Source: a phage. Taken from it: DNA of 64,000 bases. The notes under the pieces are model-generated. The model did no database searches. It saw nothing but the letters and a program-made list of their open reading frames with translations, and was not told where the DNA came from. Positions 1,703 through 37,443 of the stretch are shown one piece after another. Position numbers and translations under genes: made by a program. Positions within the stretch are counted from its first letter, which is position 1. Each line of letters starts with the position of its first letter. The stretch lies in assembly GCA_016389475.1 (NCBI GenBank), contig GCA_016389475.1_3042.1, one strand, 5' to 3'.

Positions 1703-2903
1703 ATTTTGTAATAATGTCAAACTGTTCTTTAAAGCAGAAGCTTGAATCTTGGTGCTGATACAAAAATTCATATGCTTTTTCTCGCTCACGGTCATAAAGA
1801 GTTCGGTCAGATGACAGTTCTTTAATACGTTCAAATGTTGATTCCATGTCATTTTCATCAAACCAAATGATACCGCTATCATGCGAGGTCAAAGGAGTAT
1901 TATCAACACGGAATTTTAAATTTTCGCCAGTAGATTTCCAAAATACCGGAATTGTTCCACATGCACCAAGCTCGAGATGAGTATATTCTAAAGAACGTTG
2001 TAGATATTTTTTATCCAACTTACTCAACTGATAACCAAAACCGGATTTACTCATACGTTCAAGCATTTCGCTATTTACATAACGGTCAAGAATTTGCGTT
2101 GGCAAATTAGGAGCAATTTTAATTTGGTCTACTTGATGAAGACGATAATACTCGTATGGAATTCCTTTTTCTTTAATAGGAATGAACGCTGGAGAACGTT
2201 CCAGACCTTCCATAATAGTACTTAGTCCTGCAGGTTTAAGATGTTTTTCATGAAAATCAAACATCTGATAAAAACCTTTCCATGTAGTCGTACGACCAAT
2301 CCAACGGTTGATATTCATGTTAATTTCAGAAACATCTTTCCAGTAAGTTGACCGAACCTTCGCAATATCCATAGGAGGCTGAAAGTTATATACGGTCGGT
2401 GCTTCTTCAATATCATCAAACAGAGAAACAGTTTCTGGATACCACTCTTTCATCAGAACTTTATTAAAATCACCATTATCAGAATGGCTAAAAATAACAT
2501 CAGCTCGACGAACAGTTTCTTCTAATCCCAAATTTCGACGCAAAGAAAGAGAAGAATGGTCATGTTGATAAACTACAACACGAACAGAAGGTTTAATGTT
2601 ATCAATAATTTTTTTATAGTTATTAATAGTGTCTTCTTCAACCGAAGTAGCAGGAACTGAATTGATAATTAGAATATCACAATCATTTACCAGCTTAAGT
2701 GTTTTATCATATTCTTTTGCCAATAAAACCGGAATTGAAAATGATTTATAATCATGCGCGCAATTACGAGTAAATGATTTATCTTTAGCATAAACCAAAG
2801 TCACTTCATGACCATTTTTAATAAACCAATCACGTTGCTCGAGTGAGAATTTAGTTACACCACAGCCTTCAAGACCTCGAGCCATAAAAATACATACTTT
2901 CAT
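1701..2903 (-). CDS. a-gt: DNA alpha-glucosyltransferase
   Basis: 400 aa, same length as T4 AGT; N-terminus MKVCIFMARGLEGCGVTKFSLEQRDWFIKNGHEV closely matches recalled T4 a-gt. Confidence 0.85.
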   Translation of the reverse strand: MKVCIFMARGLEGCGVTKFSLEQRDWFIKNGHEVTLVYAKDKSFTRNCAHDYKSFSIPVLLAKEYDKTLKLVNDCDILIINSVPATSVEEDTINNYKKIIDNIKPSVRVVVYQHDHSSLSLRRNLGLEETVRRADVIFSHSDNGDFNKVLMKEWYPETVSLFDDIEEAPTVYNFQPPMDIAKVRSTYWKDVSEINMNINRWIGRTTTWKGFYQMFDFHEKHLKPAGLSTIMEGLERSPAFIPIKEKGIPYEYYRLHQVDQIKIAPNLPTQILDRYVNSEMLERMSKSGFGYQLSKLDKKYLQRSLEYTHLELGACGTIPVFWKSTGENLKFRVDNTPLTSHDSGIIWFDENDMESTFERIKELSSDRTLYDREREKAYEFLYQHQDSSFCFKEQFDIITK

Positions 2904-2953
2904 TTAATATCCTCTTTGTTTTGGTTTATTTTACCAAAAATTTATAAAGCAAT

Positions 2954-2973
2954 ATAGGAGCCGAAGCTCCTAT
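2954..2973 (-). terminator. UUCG tetraloop hairpin
   Basis: ataggagccgaagctcctat; stem GGAGC/GCUCC with UUCG loop on the minus transcript, upstream of a-gt. Confidence 0.4.
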
Positions 2974-3143
2974 CCGCATAATACACCGTATAGAGGCTCA
3001 TTAGAGCTTCTAAATTTTATACGCTTATATGTTATAGTTCCTTCTGCTTTAGCTTTATCATGAGACTCTTTAAAGCGTCTCATCATTTCCTCTTTAGAGG
3101 AACGAACTTTATTATAATCTATTTCAGAAGTCTGGGTGTTCAT
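2970..3143 (-). CDS. hypothetical small basic protein (57 aa, below the track threshold)
   Basis: ATG at 3143 immediately after the upstream stop; MNTQTSEIDYNKVRSSKEEMMRRFKESHDKAKAEG...; stop overlaps hairpin 2954-2973. Confidence 0.3.
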   Translation of the reverse strand: MNTQTSEIDYNKVRSSKEEMMRRFKESHDKAKAEGTITYKRIKFRSSNEPLYGVLCG

Positions 3144-3146
3144 CTT

Positions 3147-3350
3147 TCATAACTGCCACCATTTTTTGACTTGATAAGAATCAACCCACACTTTCATATT
3201 AGGGTCTGCTCTTACAATAGGAGGATTAACTTCTTTAATTGAACTATCATGGTATTCTTTTTCAGAAATTTTCACACAAAGATGACCATTCAAAGATTCA
3301 GTAAATCCTGCATTAATTTTAAGACGCTTGAATTTTACATGTGTAAGCAT
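3147..3350 (-). CDS. hypothetical protein (67 aa)
   Basis: Track start at 3353 is TTG; first ATG is at 3350. Confidence 0.35.
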   Translation of the reverse strand: MLTHVKFKRLKINAGFTESLNGHLCVKISEKEYHDSSIKEVNPPIVRADPNMKVWVDSYQVKKWWQL

Positions 3351-3636
3351 CAATCATATCCTCAATCTGTGATCTAGTAGTCTTCCAAAGAATACTAATA
3401 AGTTCATCGTTATATGGCTGTTTTAGAATATCCCGACTTTTCTTGATAGCATATTCGTATTGAGCAAAATTATTGTTTTCAGCTGCGATCTGAGCGTGCT
3501 TATAAAGACGATTCAGTTCGCGTTTGTTTTTAGACAATAACTTATTTGCTTTTCTTTCTGCTTCAAGACGGTTCTTTTCTTCAATAGAAGAAATAAGCTT
3601 TTCCACTTCATCATTAATTTCGGGTTTATCAGTCAT
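3319..3636 (-). CDS. hypothetical protein, charged and helical (105 aa)
   Basis: ATG start; lysine/glutamate-rich heptad-like sequence. Confidence 0.5.
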   Translation of the reverse strand: MTDKPEINDEVEKLISSIEEKNRLEAERKANKLLSKNKRELNRLYKHAQIAAENNNFAQYEYAIKKSRDILKQPYNDELISILWKTTRSQIEDMIDAYTCKIQAS

Positions 3637-3856: not shown

Positions 3857-4397
3857 ATAAAAAATCCAAACTAGGAGAATCGTCTACAACACTTTTCTTT
3901 TCAGCCCCCGGTGTTCTATAGGTTGATTCTTCGTAATGCGTCATTTTATCATAGATGTCTTGAATAAAAGTTTCATCTACTAACGCAACCATATCGTCGT
4001 CACGGCTGTCATAGACATTGTGAACGAAGTAACTATATTTCTTTGCAACTTCCTTACGTTCTTTTTTAATACGTTGGACGAATGCATTAAAACAAGCTTG
4101 AGTTATATATGCATGTGGGTTTTTATATTTCGTTTCATCAAAATTGTGAAGCCCCTTAATAGAAGCTTCTATACCATCTGCAATCATTTCTTGTTTCCAA
4201 GACTGGGTGTATCCTGAAAAGTTGAAACGTTTAGATAAGCCTTCTGCAATAAGCATAATGGCTAATCCGATAGTATCATTCTGACGAACTACTTTATTTG
4301 GGTCTTTATTATTTGCTAATTCTGTTTTCCAATCAATAATAGCTTGTAAAAGCTCTTTATTGTTTACGTAATTATATTTAGGCTTAGTTTCTGACAT
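3840..4397 (-). CDS. 55: gp55 sigma factor for late transcription
   Basis: Track start 4403 is GTG; ATG at 4397 gives 185 aa [23 protein letters not shown]..., the length and N-terminus recalled for T4 gp55. Confidence 0.85.
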
Positions 4398-19927: not shown

Positions 19928-20385
19928 TCAGCCTTATATTCAATAACAGGACATACTTTAGCTTTACGAGCTTTTAAAAATTCAACGATAATCGATTTCT
20001 TGGGTTGAATAGGAGGTAAACCTTTATACGCCCTATCAATATTTTCTACGTGTAAAGCATAATCCTTTTTCCATTTATAATCTTTATATTTTTCACGCAA
20101 ATGTGCAGGAATAACAAATGAACCGATAATAAGTAAAACAACCAAAAGCGCAAGTATAAATGCTGATGGAAGCAAAGTCCATAAACTACCAAAAATAAGC
20201 CAACGCTGTAGGCTTTCTGCACAAATAATTGTTAGCCCTACGAGTATAGCACATCCAAAAATAGAAACGAAAAATGTAGGAATGGCAATAGACCAAAAAT
20301 ATGCGCATAGTGTCTTAGGTCGTTGCCATTCATCGTTAAACAATTTGAATAATTTATAGTGCCAAGAGTTTTCATTAATAATCAT
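19924..20385 (-). CDS. membrane protein (153 aa)
   Basis: Three or more hydrophobic helices; stop overlaps the nucleotidyltransferase start (ATGA). Confidence 0.55.
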   Translation of the reverse strand: MIINENSWHYKLFKLFNDEWQRPKTLCAYFWSIAIPTFFVSIFGCAILVGLTIICAESLQRWLIFGSLWTLLPSAFILALLVVLLIIGSFVIPAHLREKYKDYKWKKDYALHVENIDRAYKGLPPIQPKKSIIVEFLKARKAKVCPVIEYKAE

Positions 20386-27190: not shown

Positions 27191-27404
27191 ATTTGACTTC
27201 CTCACCAGTACATAAATCATATTCAACTAAACGAATAGGTTCATGAATGCCATATCCTTGAACAGAAATTTCTGTCGTAGGATAAATTCCATCAATATCA
27301 CCCATATTCCAGGCTTCATTAAATTGCTGTTCGCCTGAATTACTAAACCACTCGGCGAAAGCATTTAGCACATCTTCAGAACCTTCAATAATTATCTTTG
27401 CCAT
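27183..27404 (-). CDS. hypothetical protein (73 aa)
   Basis: ATG start; 1-nt junction with the upstream gene. Confidence 0.45.
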   Translation of the reverse strand: MAKIIIEGSEDVLNAFAEWFSNSGEQQFNEAWNMGDIDGIYPTTEISVQGYGIHEPIRLVEYDLCTGEEVKYD

Positions 27405-27766
27405 TACAAACTCTCGGTGAATGTACGAGCGATAACGTCGCGCTGCTGTTCCGGAGTCAGAGAGTTAAAGCGAACTGCATAACCTGATACACGGATGGTC
27501 AGCTGCGGATATTTTTCCGGATGCTTAACTGCATCTTCCAGAGTTTCACGACGCAGAACGTTAACGTTCAGGTGTTGACCACCTTCAATTTTAACTGCAG
27601 GCTGTTGCTCAATTTCAATTTCACGGGCATGCAAACCATAGAAAATTTCTGGGTCTACAAAAGAGTCCTCTTTAAAGGTTTTAGAAACGATAATTCGTGC
27701 TTGAATACCATCTTCAAAATAAATAGTACCTTTGTGTATGCCTTCAAGAATTTGATATGCTTTCAT
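27404..27766 (-). CDS. autonomous glycyl-radical cofactor-like protein (GrcA/YfiD-like)
   Basis: 120 aa; C-terminal glycyl-radical signature [29 protein letters not shown]. Confidence 0.7.
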
Positions 27767-27773
27767 ATAAACC

Positions 27774-28103
27774 TCAATTAGAAAATAAATTTATCCAAGA
27801 TTGTTCTTTAATTAAAAACGGCTCAGAATCATATGCCATTAAACTTTGCGTAATTAATCCTTTAAAAGGTCCATCAATAAATTCCATGGTAAAATATGGA
27901 ATTTTATTCATTAGCCGTGCATTAGGAGCAGTACATAAAACTCTGCATCCTTTGAATACACCTTTTTGTAATTTGTATTGCTTGGGATAAAATTCGCTCA
28001 AAATGTTATTATTTGCTAAAATTTCAAAATGATTCACCAATTTATTTTTAATAGTTTTTGGCGAAAAATAAAGATATTCGAAAAGTTGCGTATCTGTCAT
28101 CAT
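27774..28103 (-). CDS. hypothetical protein (109 aa)
   Basis: Shortened to ATG 28103, which overlaps the upstream stop (ATGATGA). Confidence 0.4.
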
Positions 28104-28642
28104 TGCATTCCAATTACGAAAAACTGCGGACGAGTAATACCACCAATACAGCATTTACTATTGCAGCAATATTGCACAGTTTCAATATGAATATCGTAAA
28201 TTTTATCCATATCAGGAGATTTAACAGGCTCATCGATTATATACAAAATTCGAGAAAGCGATAAACCTCTGAACTTGCTACCTCTATTACCAACAAAACT
28301 ACGGACAGAATCAGTAAATAAACGGAATCGAATATCATCGCTAGAATAACGAGAAAATTCTTTTTTAATGCGGCCCACAGAAATTTTAGCGTAAGCTGAA
28401 GTATTAGAAAGAACAATAACTGTTCCACCATCATACAACCAATTAGCGGCAAAATTAGTTACTGCAGTTGATTTACCGGATTGTCTGCCACCATCTAAAC
28501 GAAGTGTACAATATTCTTTAAATAAATACGACGAATCAGGTACATAAAATCCACTATTACAAATTTCTTCTACTCTAGCGTCAGAATGGTGTGTAAAAGC
28601 ATTCATCAGGGATAGATAAGGACCAGTTAAAAATGTTCTCAT
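28100..28642 (-). CDS. small P-loop NTPase (about 180 aa)
   Basis: Walker A GGRQSGKST and Walker B ILYIIDEP; start chosen at ATG 28642 (weak Shine-Dalgarno); ATGs at 28672 and 28690 are alternatives. Confidence 0.5.
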   Translation of the reverse strand: MRTFLTGPYLSLMNAFTHHSDARVEEICNSGFYVPDSSYLFKEYCTLRLDGGRQSGKSTAVTNFAANWLYDGGTVIVLSNTSAYAKISVGRIKKEFSRYSSDDIRFRLFTDSVRSFVGNRGSKFRGLSLSRILYIIDEPVKSPDMDKIYDIHIETVQYCCNSKCCIGGITRPQFFVIGMQ

Positions 28643-28783
28643 TTTATTCTCTCTAAATTTGGGCCATTCCATGGCGCATGAATTGTCCATTTCTGTATTT
28701 ACCCATTACCGCACTTGGGCTCGACCTTATTACAGGTTGGCGGGAATCCCTCACAGAATCATGAGGTCCAGCTTGTTCCCATA

Positions 28784-29257
28784 TTATTTGAACGATTTAA
28801 CGTACTGAATAGAACCTTTACTATTTACAAAGGCAATTTTACCATTTTTATTATACATGGTAGCAGTACGCTGATAGCCATAAGTTTGCTTACCAGATTG
28901 ATAACCAACTAATGCAAAATTATCTTCACCCATTTTATTCTGTTTAGCGCGAATGCGTTCATGACCATGTGCCATAAGAACCTTAGCATCACCAGTTACA
29001 ATGGATCGACGAGTTTTTTCATCTTCAACTGTATTAACAAAGTCGTCAAATGAATCAAATTTAGCATGAGATTTATTATACAGTTTTCCATCTACTGCAT
29101 AATTATATCCCTGTACATCCATCTCAACTTCTGTACCATCATCCAATACAGCAGTAATTTTCTGTCCTTTTTTAAATTTCAAAAGATCAGTAAAAGATTC
29201 AGCAATAATTTGAGAATTAATAGCTGCTTCAGTGATAAATTCTTGATATGTTTTCAT
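28784..29257 (-). CDS. internal-protein-like virion protein with capsid-targeting sequence
   Basis: Begins MKTYQEFITEAA (CTS pattern with L/I-x-E prohead-protease site); lysine-rich; early promoter 29311-29341 upstream. Confidence 0.6.
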   Translation of the reverse strand: MKTYQEFITEAAINSQIIAESFTDLLKFKKGQKITAVLDDGTEVEMDVQGYNYAVDGKLYNKSHAKFDSFDDFVNTVEDEKTRRSIVTGDAKVLMAHGHERIRAKQNKMGEDNFALVGYQSGKQTYGYQRTATMYNKNGKIAFVNSKGSIQYVKSFK

Positions 29258-29310
29258 GTGTTTCCTTTAAATATTTTAATTAGTAATTTGTCTCTTCAAG
29301 CAACTGTGAA

Positions 29311-29341
29311 TATACTATCACAATTCTAGGAGAAAGTAAAC
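29311..29341 (-). promoter_or_regulatory. early (sigma70-type) promoter for the CTS-protein gene 28784-29257
   Basis: Minus strand GTTTAC (29341-29336), spacer, -10 TAGTATA. Confidence 0.5.
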
Positions 29342-29345
29342 AACT

Positions 29346-29876
<531 letters not shown>

Positions 29877-30332
29877 TTAAAAGAGGCTGTTCATTATTCG
29901 GTAAAGTGAAGGACCCATCACATATTGCCACTGAGTACGAGGAATAAGAGCAAAAGCATCCATCTCTGGAATCATAACGCCATCTTTATTTTCAAAATAA
30001 GACTCGCAATGGCAATTTCTGAACATCTCATGCTCTACTGGAATCGTATAATAAAATAACTGTAAGTCTTTATTACTAGAATATTTAAATATACCTAGGT
30101 CTTCTAGAAGGTCTGGATTATAATTGCTAAAACCGGTCTCTTCTAAGCATTCTCTTTTTGCAGCTTCCAGTGCATTCAAATCAGAACTTTCTACACGCCC
30201 CTTTGGAATATCCCAGCGATGTGCCATCATTCCAGGCTTACGAGAACCAGTAACCCGACCCATAAATAAATCTTTATCTTCTGTCATAAAGATAATACCA
30301 GCTGATAGTGTTTTCATTTTAATTTCCTGCAT
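29877..30332 (-). CDS. nudE: Nudix hydrolase
   Basis: 151 aa; Nudix box GRVESSDLNALEAAKRECLEETGF. Confidence 0.8.
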   Translation of the reverse strand: MQEIKMKTLSAGIIFMTEDKDLFMGRVTGSRKPGMMAHRWDIPKGRVESSDLNALEAAKRECLEETGFSNYNPDLLEDLGIFKYSSNKDLQLFYYTIPVEHEMFRNCHCESYFENKDGVMIPEMDAFALIPRTQWQYVMGPSLYRIMNSLF

Positions 30333-30802
30333 TCAGTGATAAAGTTATTTAAATTTTGAGTATATTTCTTTTCATCAAAAATCTTTTGTTGTCTGCGTAG
30401 TCGCCATGGCATTTCAATGAACGTGTACCATATCCCAGATAATATTGCTGCAGTAAAAATATTAACAAGTATAGTTAAAAGAATCCAATCTCCTATTCTG
30501 TCCATTGGATTTTTTATAAAAAAGTAAAATACGAATGATGTCACAGGAAGACTAATAATATACCACAGAATCATAATTTTATCTGTGAACCAATCAGCGT
30601 TCGTTAACTTAGCGCGACCATTATGAATACACACGAATTTATCATCTGTTATAATAGATGGCTTAGCTGCTTGATATCCCATTCTAAACTCCCTAATCAA
30701 CAAATTTTTCATATCTTCGGAACAACCATTCCAGTCAACTCTATCAACTGAAATGCCATCATCCCCATCATCTAAATCATACCAGCGAGTTTTTAAAATC
30801 AT
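30314..30802 (-). CDS. small membrane protein (162 aa)
   Basis: Two hydrophobic helices; C-terminal tail ...FITECRKLK. Confidence 0.5.
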   Translation of the reverse strand: MILKTRWYDLDDGDDGISVDRVDWNGCSEDMKNLLIREFRMGYQAAKPSIITDDKFVCIHNGRAKLTNADWFTDKIMILWYIISLPVTSFVFYFFIKNPMDRIGDWILLTILVNIFTAAILSGIWYTFIEMPWRLRRQQKIFDEKKYTQNLNNFITECRKLK

Positions 30803-34737: not shown

Positions 34738-35088
34738 TTAGTATTCTTTTAAAGCATCAACCTGTTCACGACGTTTACGCCATAAATCAATTACTTCATA
34801 CGCAGATTCAGCATTTCGAATTGGACGGCATTTATATAAAGACTTGTGATTTTGATATTGTGTAGATAACGGAATTTTATCTAAAAGGTCTTTACGTTCA
34901 AAATATTCGTAACCATCTAAACCAAATGAACGATTTTTGAGAAATTGCCAATGACCAAATTCGTTTTCGACATAAACATAATCTGCATGCTGATAAAGCA
35001 AATTAATTACGCGTTCAGAAATAACAGTATCATTATGATTAAAATAGAATGTTAAATCATGAACTACTAAATAAACATTACCTTTCAT
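34738..35088 (-). CDS. hypothetical protein (116 aa)
   Basis: ATG with GAGGAAAA upstream; lies immediately downstream of tRNA-Arg. Confidence 0.5.
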   Translation of the reverse strand: MKGNVYLVVHDLTFYFNHNDTVISERVINLLYQHADYVYVENEFGHWQFLKNRSFGLDGYEYFERKDLLDKIPLSTQYQNHKSLYKCRPIRNAESAYEVIDLWRKRREQVDALKEY

Positions 35089-35106
35089 ATTTTCCTCACT
35101 TATAAT

Positions 35107-35801: not shown

Positions 35802-35803
35802 AG

Positions 35804-35877
35804 TCTCCATACAAGGATTTGAACCTTGGACCTCCTGATCCCAAATCAGGCGCTCTACCAAACTGAGCTACACGGAG
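35804..35877 (-). tRNA. tRNA-Pro (anticodon UGG)
   Basis: Acceptor CUCCGUG/UAUGGAG, loop UU-UGG-GA; 3' CCA not encoded. Confidence 0.7.
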
Positions 35878-35887
35878 TAAATTAAAT

Positions 35888-37158: not shown

Positions 37159-37443
37159 TTACAAAAGATTTTTAGCAATAATTTTAAGCTGAGCTACTGA
37201 AATATGCTTGGCTTTAAACAAAGCAGTTTCTTCAGCAGGGGAGATAACGATTGTAGCACCATCTTTCTTAGCGGACCATCCATCACCCAGGTAAACAGTA
37301 CCTTTGACTTCTTCGCCATCAACCAGGCTAATCATCGGTTTACCTTCACGTCCTTTGTTTGCTTTAATAACTTCAGAAGTAAGGGTCGCTTCAGTCAAAG
37401 TAGAAGCGTTAGTGGTTGAAGTGAATTCTTGATAAGTTTTCAT
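37159..37443 (-). CDS. ipI: internal protein I-like virion protein with capsid-targeting sequence (94 aa)
   Basis: Begins MKTYQEF...; size and position immediately upstream of 57B as for T4 ipI; early promoter 37475-37504. Confidence 0.6.
   Translation of the reverse strand: MKTYQEFTSTTNASTLTEATLTSEVIKANKGREGKPMISLVDGEEVKGTVYLGDGWSAKKDGATIVISPAEETALFKAKHISVAQLKIIAKNLL

Follow-up and report, generated by a model that had tools for sequence, protein, structure and literature searches.

Ip4 (IpIV) as the internal-protein cassette of a T2-type e/vs.8 locus in a T4-like coliphage, with a putative anti-defence role

The open reading frame that lies between the lysozyme gene e and the vs genes in the 64-kb stretch of phage DNA analysed here (the window) is almost certainly ip4 (ipIV), an interchangeable internal-protein cassette of the T-even phages. 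Taken from the ORF list, it runs on the minus strand (28784..29257, stop codon included) and encodes, from an ATG start, a precursor of 157 aa. The proposed account, to which a probability of roughly 0.8 is assigned with the target set aside, is that this cassette protein is packaged, processed, injected and directed against a host defence. The precursor would be expressed from the early-type promoter that came with the cassette, and probably late in infection as well; its 10-residue leader would dock it into the prohead scaffolding core, and the gp21 prohead protease would then remove the leader after Glu10 and possibly 10 further residues after Glu20. The mature protein (~15-16.5 kDa) would stay in the head with the DNA and be injected together with it, most likely to bind and block a host defence that attacks glucosyl-hmC DNA right after injection. 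Gene, name, locus and T2-type layout had all been described before: the finding is real, not new.

The first piece of evidence for the identity of the gene comes from family profiles. The 157-aa product matches Pfam DUF7412 (PF24183) over its full length (residues 1-157, E 2.5e-95) and PHROG 3155, "internal virion protein" (E 2.3e-101). By tblastn, Ip4 was located in 471 phage records of GenBank: 307 have at least 95% identity to the protein of the window and another 159, from T4-like phages of Klebsiella, Salmonella and Serratia, have 60-80%. Given these two profile matches and the 471 phage records, the frame was considered a real gene and not a chance ORF. The closest known proteins are the Ip4/IpIV of K3, T2, RB14, RB32, PP01 and ime09, which share length, leader and e/vs.8 locus with the window protein, are 98-100% identical to it and differ by one or two substitutions, nothing of substance. 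Specifically, the identity is 98% to UniProt Q38388, "Ip4 [Enterobacteria phage K3]", 99.4% to the T2 and RB14 proteins, and 100% to the protein of KMB42 and ACG-C40. The label "Ip4" is found in RB14, RB32 and ime09, "ipIV" in PP01 and GiZh, and "IpIV internal head protein" in T2 (LC348380). A Foldseek comparison against BFVD gave Q38388 as the best viral structural match, and Ip4 alone was returned. The name is said to have arisen in the wake of the survey of T-even polymorphism by Repoila (1994); Q38388 is reportedly an entry from that 1990s survey, and the gene, its name and the plasticity of the locus are said to have been on record since 1994. The 1994 survey is cited for the many proteins with a capsid-targeting sequence (CTS) by three later papers (PMC12373910, PMC3012670, PMC9026906). 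A literature search for papers on Ip4 or DUF7412 by name found none. Thus, the original prediction, which had described a 157-aa CTS protein starting with MKTYQEFITE|A, was borne out by the minus-strand frame, the family matches and the leader. Its further suggestion of an uncharacterised injected effector stands insofar as the function is still unassigned, but the protein is neither new nor unnoticed, being the named Ip4/IpIV (Q38388, DUF7412).

Two better known internal proteins of T4, IpII and IpIII, share the locus with Ip4 and are also small and basic. They might be expected to follow the same route (core, gp21 cleavage, injection), and the module made of promoter, ribosome-binding site and leader is common to them (~92% DNA identity between ip4 and ipIII up to codon 11). 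However, their mature parts are unrelated in sequence to Ip4. The alignment with T4 IpIII is confined to residues 1-13, and that with T4 IpII (31% identity across 77 residues) is driven by the leader, in agreement with tblastn. The notion of an orthologue of ipII or ipIII, which had been raised as the counter-explanation from the outset, was rejected on this ground, as the similarity is gone after ~13 residues. An exhaustive profile search among 1.84 billion representatives returned just four clusters at E < 1e-10, all of them Ip4-like and with a CTS-like leader. The distant homologues begin with leaders of the MNFxxFLNES type, and a search for such distant members among GenBank phages found none. 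In this search the family stayed within T4-like phages.

The window itself belongs to a Tequatrovirus, that is, a T4/T2-like coliphage. Over positions 27700-30400, identity to vB-Eco-KMB39, CAM-21 and G4507 amounts to 99.2-99.3%, and the segment 28700-29840 is 99.9% identical to CAM-21. All genes of the region lie on the minus strand and follow the transcription order nudE (29877-30332), e, ip4, vs.8, vs.7 and vs.6. The upstream border of the locus is gene e (29346..29840), encoding the T4-type lysozyme (Pfam Phage_lysozyme), which in KMB39 is 97% identical to T4 e. The downstream border is the vs.8 orthologue (28100..28642, or up to 28690), identified by its Walker-A motif GRQSGKST and by PHROG 1488, and annotated as 543 nt in G4507 and MLF4. 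This P-loop ORF had been taken as an occupant of the variable interval, a view that has to be abandoned: it is Vs.8, the last vs gene, and T4 has one too (82% identity). For the same reason, the P-loop protein was rejected as a replacement of denV. At the far end of this gene series, vs.6 (27404-27766, minus strand) encodes, as in T4, a GrcA-like autonomous glycyl-radical cofactor (Pfam Gly_radical, E 2.7e-18); the KMB39 annotation divides this gene in two.

In order to place this layout among its relatives, 27 loci anchored on e and vs.8 were compared, namely 22 IMG/VR contigs plus T4, MLF4, Sf25, G4507 and the window. The order e, ipIII, ipII, denV and vs.8 given for T4 proved correct, and so did the view of the region as a hypervariable internal-protein locus, since both the CTS ORFs and denV vary among the 27 loci. 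The gap between e and vs.8 ranges from 656 to 2448 bp, the window having the shortest one; the number of CTS ORFs in it varies between one and at least four. Ip4 occurs in six loci, which makes it, in a tie, the commonest cassette in this set, and it is the only internal protein that T2 carries at the e/vs.8 locus. The position of denV also varies, as it adjoins vs.8 in T4 and e in MLF4. The order in T2, e-Ip4-vs.8, is exactly that of the window, so the synteny comparison reveals nothing unusual. A second set was obtained as an evenly spaced sample from the 773 records matching Ip4 plus e, and comprised 24 sampled records with both genes. In 10 of them (T2, RB7, RB27, RB32, KIT03, CAM-21 and others) Ip4 and e are adjacent and uninterrupted; the six named phages share the whole e-Ip4-vs.8 layout with the window. 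The remaining sampled records have denV, Ip10 or other ORFs between both genes; in PP01, Ip10 is annotated between e and ipIV, at the position where Sf25 has a 105-aa CTS protein. The denV-less e-Ip4-vs.8 arrangement is therefore the ordinary layout of phage T2, found in roughly 40% of the Ip4-carrying relatives.

The borders of the cassette become apparent when the window is compared with T4. Identity is 91.8% through the 3' end of e, the promoter-like element, the ribosome-binding site and the leader codons. The homology ends at about codon 11 of ip4 and resumes exactly at its stop codon, which aligns with the stop codon of T4 denV (blastn breakpoints). In this way, a 442-bp Ip4 body stands in place of 1443 bp in T4, which comprise the ipIII body, ipII and denV. 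The break after the leader and the return at the stop codon indicate a cassette swap relative to T4. A second copy of the promoter and leader module, with 73% identity, precedes T4 ipII, and the pattern fits a shuffling of cassettes that would proceed by recombination within such repeated modules.

Downstream of ip4 there is a kept spacer (28691..28783, minus strand; 93% mean identity in a five-phage alignment), a stretch which in T4 corresponds to the annotated N-terminus of Vs.8. A structured RNA or a terminator in this GC-richer 93-nt spacer was considered and rejected: Rfam gave just a chance snoRNA match (E 0.15), and the spacer folded no better than its shuffled versions (z = 0.19). The start of vs.8 varies between phages (window 28643-28783, minus strand; T4 piece 2215-2446). 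T4, with 9 extra nt, has a frame that yields a Vs.8 of 219 aa. This upstream frame stops in the window, T2, Sf25 and MLF4 (33-aa ORF, 28653-28754), and the gene probably starts in these phages at the position matching 28642. In the window and MLF4, one extra T opens an alternative 196-aa frame from 28690, and in one T2 record vs.8 is spread over three frames.

The claim that no ORF in the window resembles endonuclease V held up: within the 64 kb, the best tblastn match of T4 DenV had E = 8.6. In T4, denV lies within the variable e/vs.8 interval; across the comparison, 21 of the 27 loci have it and six lack it. The alternative that denV is merely located outside the window is disfavoured by the complete genome of KMB39 (168,887 bp), which shares 95.9% identity with the window across 62.5 kb and has the same e/Ip4/vs.8 layout at 99.3% identity. 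DenV gave no match at E <= 1 in this genome, and e, nudE, vs.7, vs.8 and Ip4 were all recovered. By comparison with KMB39, denV is likely absent from the whole genome of the window's phage. Such an absence is a normal, T2-type allele of the locus. A lack of the v (denV) function makes T2 classically more sensitive to UV than T4. The lack of denV in the window predicts a T2-like UV sensitivity, above that of T4, a point of practical weight only, for instance in the UV inactivation of phage preparations.

Upstream of ip4, a T4 early-type promoter-like element was recognized (29312..29341, minus strand). It consists of GTTTAC (29341-29336), which we take to be the -35 consensus of T4 early promoters, an 18-nt spacing, and TAGTAT (29317-29312) with a TG in front. 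The stretch upstream of ip4 is ~92% identical to the e-ipIII intergenic region of T4, where a near-identical element precedes ipIII; a similar one precedes T4 ipII. The early promoter that had been proposed to drive the gene gains from this match, although a generic sigma-70 scan did not list the GTTTAC...TAGTAT site, because each hexamer fits the E. coli consensus at just four of six positions. Hence, an early promoter before ip4, suggested by orthology with the T4 ipIII upstream region, is plausible. In MLF4 and Sf25 the same promoter precedes denV or a 105-aa internal protein, and ip4, 9-16 nt further on, lacks its own promoter. A Shine-Dalgarno-like AAGGAA (29262..29267, minus strand) is found 4 nt upstream of the ATG; TTTAAAGGAAAC is kept before the compared ip genes that have an upstream region of their own, and Sf25 Ip4 shows GGATAC instead. 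T4 produces IPI-III abundantly as early as 1-3 min after infection, and late as well (PMC6071114).

The N-terminus of the precursor suggests how the protein would reach the head. Residues 1-10, MKTYQEFITE (29228..29257, minus strand), form the putative capsid-targeting sequence or propeptide, with a gp21 cut predicted after Glu10, and match the T4 IpII/IpIII leader MKTYQEFIAE at nine of ten residues. Experiments with IPIII had demonstrated that the first ten residues are enough for packaging, that targeting depends on residues 4 and 7 and processing on residues 8 and 10, and that the gp21 protease cleaves after L/I-x-E (PMC9026906). All four residues (Y4, F7, I8 and E10) are kept in Ip4, the motif at the end of the leader being I8-T9-E10|A11, and the sole difference, at position 9, falls on the free x. 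The leader is followed by a flexible linker (residues 11-20; 29198..29227, minus strand), with pLDDT < 50 for residues 11-19 in the full-length model, which ends in a possible second gp21 site, I18-A19-E20|S21. E20 is fully conserved across the close Ip4 family, as is a hydrophobic residue two positions before it, and two of three distant homologues have L-N-E at this position. A second gp21 cut that would remove the disordered linker is therefore plausible, and may be compared with the longer leader of IpI. The gene for gp21 and the scaffolding core genes lie past the end of the 64 kb; the relative KMB39 has annotated genes for prohead core and scaffold. The placement between e and vs.8, which together with 57B/tRNA makes up the pair of polymorphic internal-protein loci, the IPIII-type leader and the gp21 motif characterize Ip4, as far as its sequence tells, as a T4-type internal protein, and it is probably packaged into the head and processed. 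A literature search for a proteomic report of Ip4 in virions found none.

The proposal of a role after injection derives from the other internal proteins. Ip1, Ip2 and Ip3 are each described as inhibitors of one specific GmrSD type IV restriction enzyme, and the same paper puts forward GmrSD variants as the targets of the proteins encoded at both Ip loci (PMC12373910). T4 IpI*, the inhibitor of the GmrSD of E. coli CT596, belongs to the same class of injected protein as Ip4, and leaderless IPIII is active in the host cytoplasm (PMC9391042). More recently, another internal protein, Bas37_0260, was reported to inhibit McrBC; it is a CTS cassette protein unlike Ip1-3 beyond the leader (bioRxiv 10.1101/2025.11.20.689424). 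Bas37_0260 sits at the ipI locus, whereas Ip4 sits at e/vs.8, and both are likened by description, not by sequence; it does indicate that internal proteins can have targets other than GmrSD. Judging by analogy from Ip1, Ip2, Ip3 and Bas37_0260, there is about an even chance that Ip4 serves against a host defence. T4 IpIII inhibits the two-gene GmrSD of ECOR17 and IpII the GmrSD/BrxU of ECOR21, and T2, a natural Ip4 carrier without Ip2 or Ip3, is restricted by the GmrSD of both strains (PMC12373910). These two enzymes are thus not targets of Ip4, which differs in this from IpII and IpIII. In addition, section 10 and Supplementary Fig. 9 of this paper give no reproducible inhibition for 'ip4-10' versus a panel of GmrSD variants, where 'ip4' is matched to the present protein by its name. 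The near-invariance of Ip4 within Tequatrovirus (at least 95% identity in 307 of 471 records) is unlike a fast arms race at the sequence level.

This conservation within the genus also speaks for a rival view, in which Ip4 is mainly a generic basic head filler that neutralises DNA charge in packaging and ejection and is not directed at any specific target of the host. The protein is basic and moderately rich in lysine, which makes up 11.5% of the precursor and 11.6% of the mature form, the pI of which is 9.1, compared with a lysine content of 15% in T4 IpII and 13.5% in IpIII. Contacts between lysines and DNA phosphates have been described for the T4 internal proteins (PMC3012670), PMC6071114 mentions a role in charge balance, and the published GmrSD panel yielded no target for Ip4 (PMC12373910). 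However, the net charge of Ip4 is just +4, versus +10 for IpIII, its model contains a well-defined folded domain, and its presence in only 6 of 27 loci makes it dispensable for head function. Moreover, all T4 internal proteins once given that supposed role proved to have specific targets (PMC12373910). A mere filling function for Ip4 was consequently judged unlikely.

Further elements of judgment were provided by structure prediction. The AlphaFold2 model of full-length Ip4 is mediocre (pLDDT 71), with residues 11-19 disordered. When residues 21-157, the mature domain (28787..29197, minus strand), were modelled with three distant homologues added, the values rose to pLDDT 91.2 and pTM 0.85, and the predicted fold is a small SH3/Sm-like beta-barrel that accommodates three inserted helices. 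Searching the PDB chains with a sequence profile built from the family alignment gave nothing below E 0.5. Fold comparison yielded weak matches to small beta-barrels, which include those of RNA polymerase-, Rho- or RNA-binding proteins (CarD, YaeO, Hfq/Sm, L19). These matches, together with the early-type promoter common to T4 ipIII, the abundance of T4 internal proteins 1-3 min after infection and the early regulatory role suggested for them (PMC6071114), are what could be invoked for a factor that mainly acts early in the cytoplasm to take over host processes such as translation or transcription, its packaging being secondary; this was deemed improbable. Less likely still is an injected enzyme that modifies a host component, like the ADP-ribosyltransferase Alt. 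The close family does present invariant H64, H99, E111 and D112, but these residues are lost, and invariance is no longer seen for any Asp, Glu, His, Cys or Ser, once the distant homologues P0015-P0017 are aligned, and neither an enzyme fold nor a Pfam catalytic domain was found in Ip4 by Pfam, PDB profile search or fold comparison. The loss of invariant His and acidic residues argues against catalysis and for a binding protein; the modelled fold and the residues would suit a binder rather than an enzyme.

Returning to the anti-defence reading, its most specific version is that Ip4 acts as an injected inhibitor of a modification-dependent defence yet to be named, other than the GmrSD pair that restricts T2 and the variants of the published panel, by means of its SH3/Sm-like beta-barrel. 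This version is tentative, somewhat short of an even chance. If true, the predicted small beta-barrel would be a fold so far undescribed for an anti-restriction protein.

The weakest alternative, a decaying remnant no longer packaged or functional in the window's phage, recalls that ip4 is split in G4507 and that fragments such as P0020 exist, but it is barely credible for an intact frame 100% identical to the KMB42/ACG-C40 protein and 99.4% to that of T2, with promoter, ribosome-binding site and leader intact. In G4507, whose locus is 99.2% identical to the window, an extra A in an A6 run (window 29168-29173; G4507 piece 3943-3950) divides ip4 into two annotated CDSs, and a 39-aa fragment (P0020) matching the split gene is present in protein collections. 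The split reflects either a sequencing error in the homopolymer or a naturally occurring knock-out.

By 2025, Ip1, Ip2 and Ip3 had each been assigned a GmrSD enzyme, and another internal protein McrBC, Ip4 still being an orphan. Its target, once found, would add one more pair of phage and anti-restriction partners, and could explain differences in host range among therapeutic T4-like phages.

The window contains a second CTS protein, an IpI orthologue (37159-37443, minus strand) of 94 aa and 91% identity to T4 IpI, with an 18-residue leader (MKTYQEFTSTTNASTLTE|A); the phage therefore carries IpI plus Ip4. The ipI locus has been swapped too: the segment 37153-37428 differs from KMB39 (20081-20338), which has there an unrelated 85-aa CTS protein (MKTFKEFATKTTITE...), and the two sequences become homologous again within the leader codons, which repeats the pattern of a leader-bounded cassette observed at e/vs.8. 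Short stretches of the tRNA region (34740-35106 and 35803-35882) have no megablast match in KMB39, where a homing endonuclease lies among the tRNA genes, and represent a further small polymorphic spot. Lastly, some database labels call for caution. In Sf25, Ip4 (2581-3054) is wrongly called 'IpIII', and an unrelated 105-aa CTS protein (3071-3388), with just the leader in common with T4 IpII, is called 'IpII'. Two records labelled 'Pseudomonas phage' (PV654520.1 and OR584013.1) contain the Tequatrovirus locus at ~96% identity, and such host labels look doubtful for T4-like coliphages.
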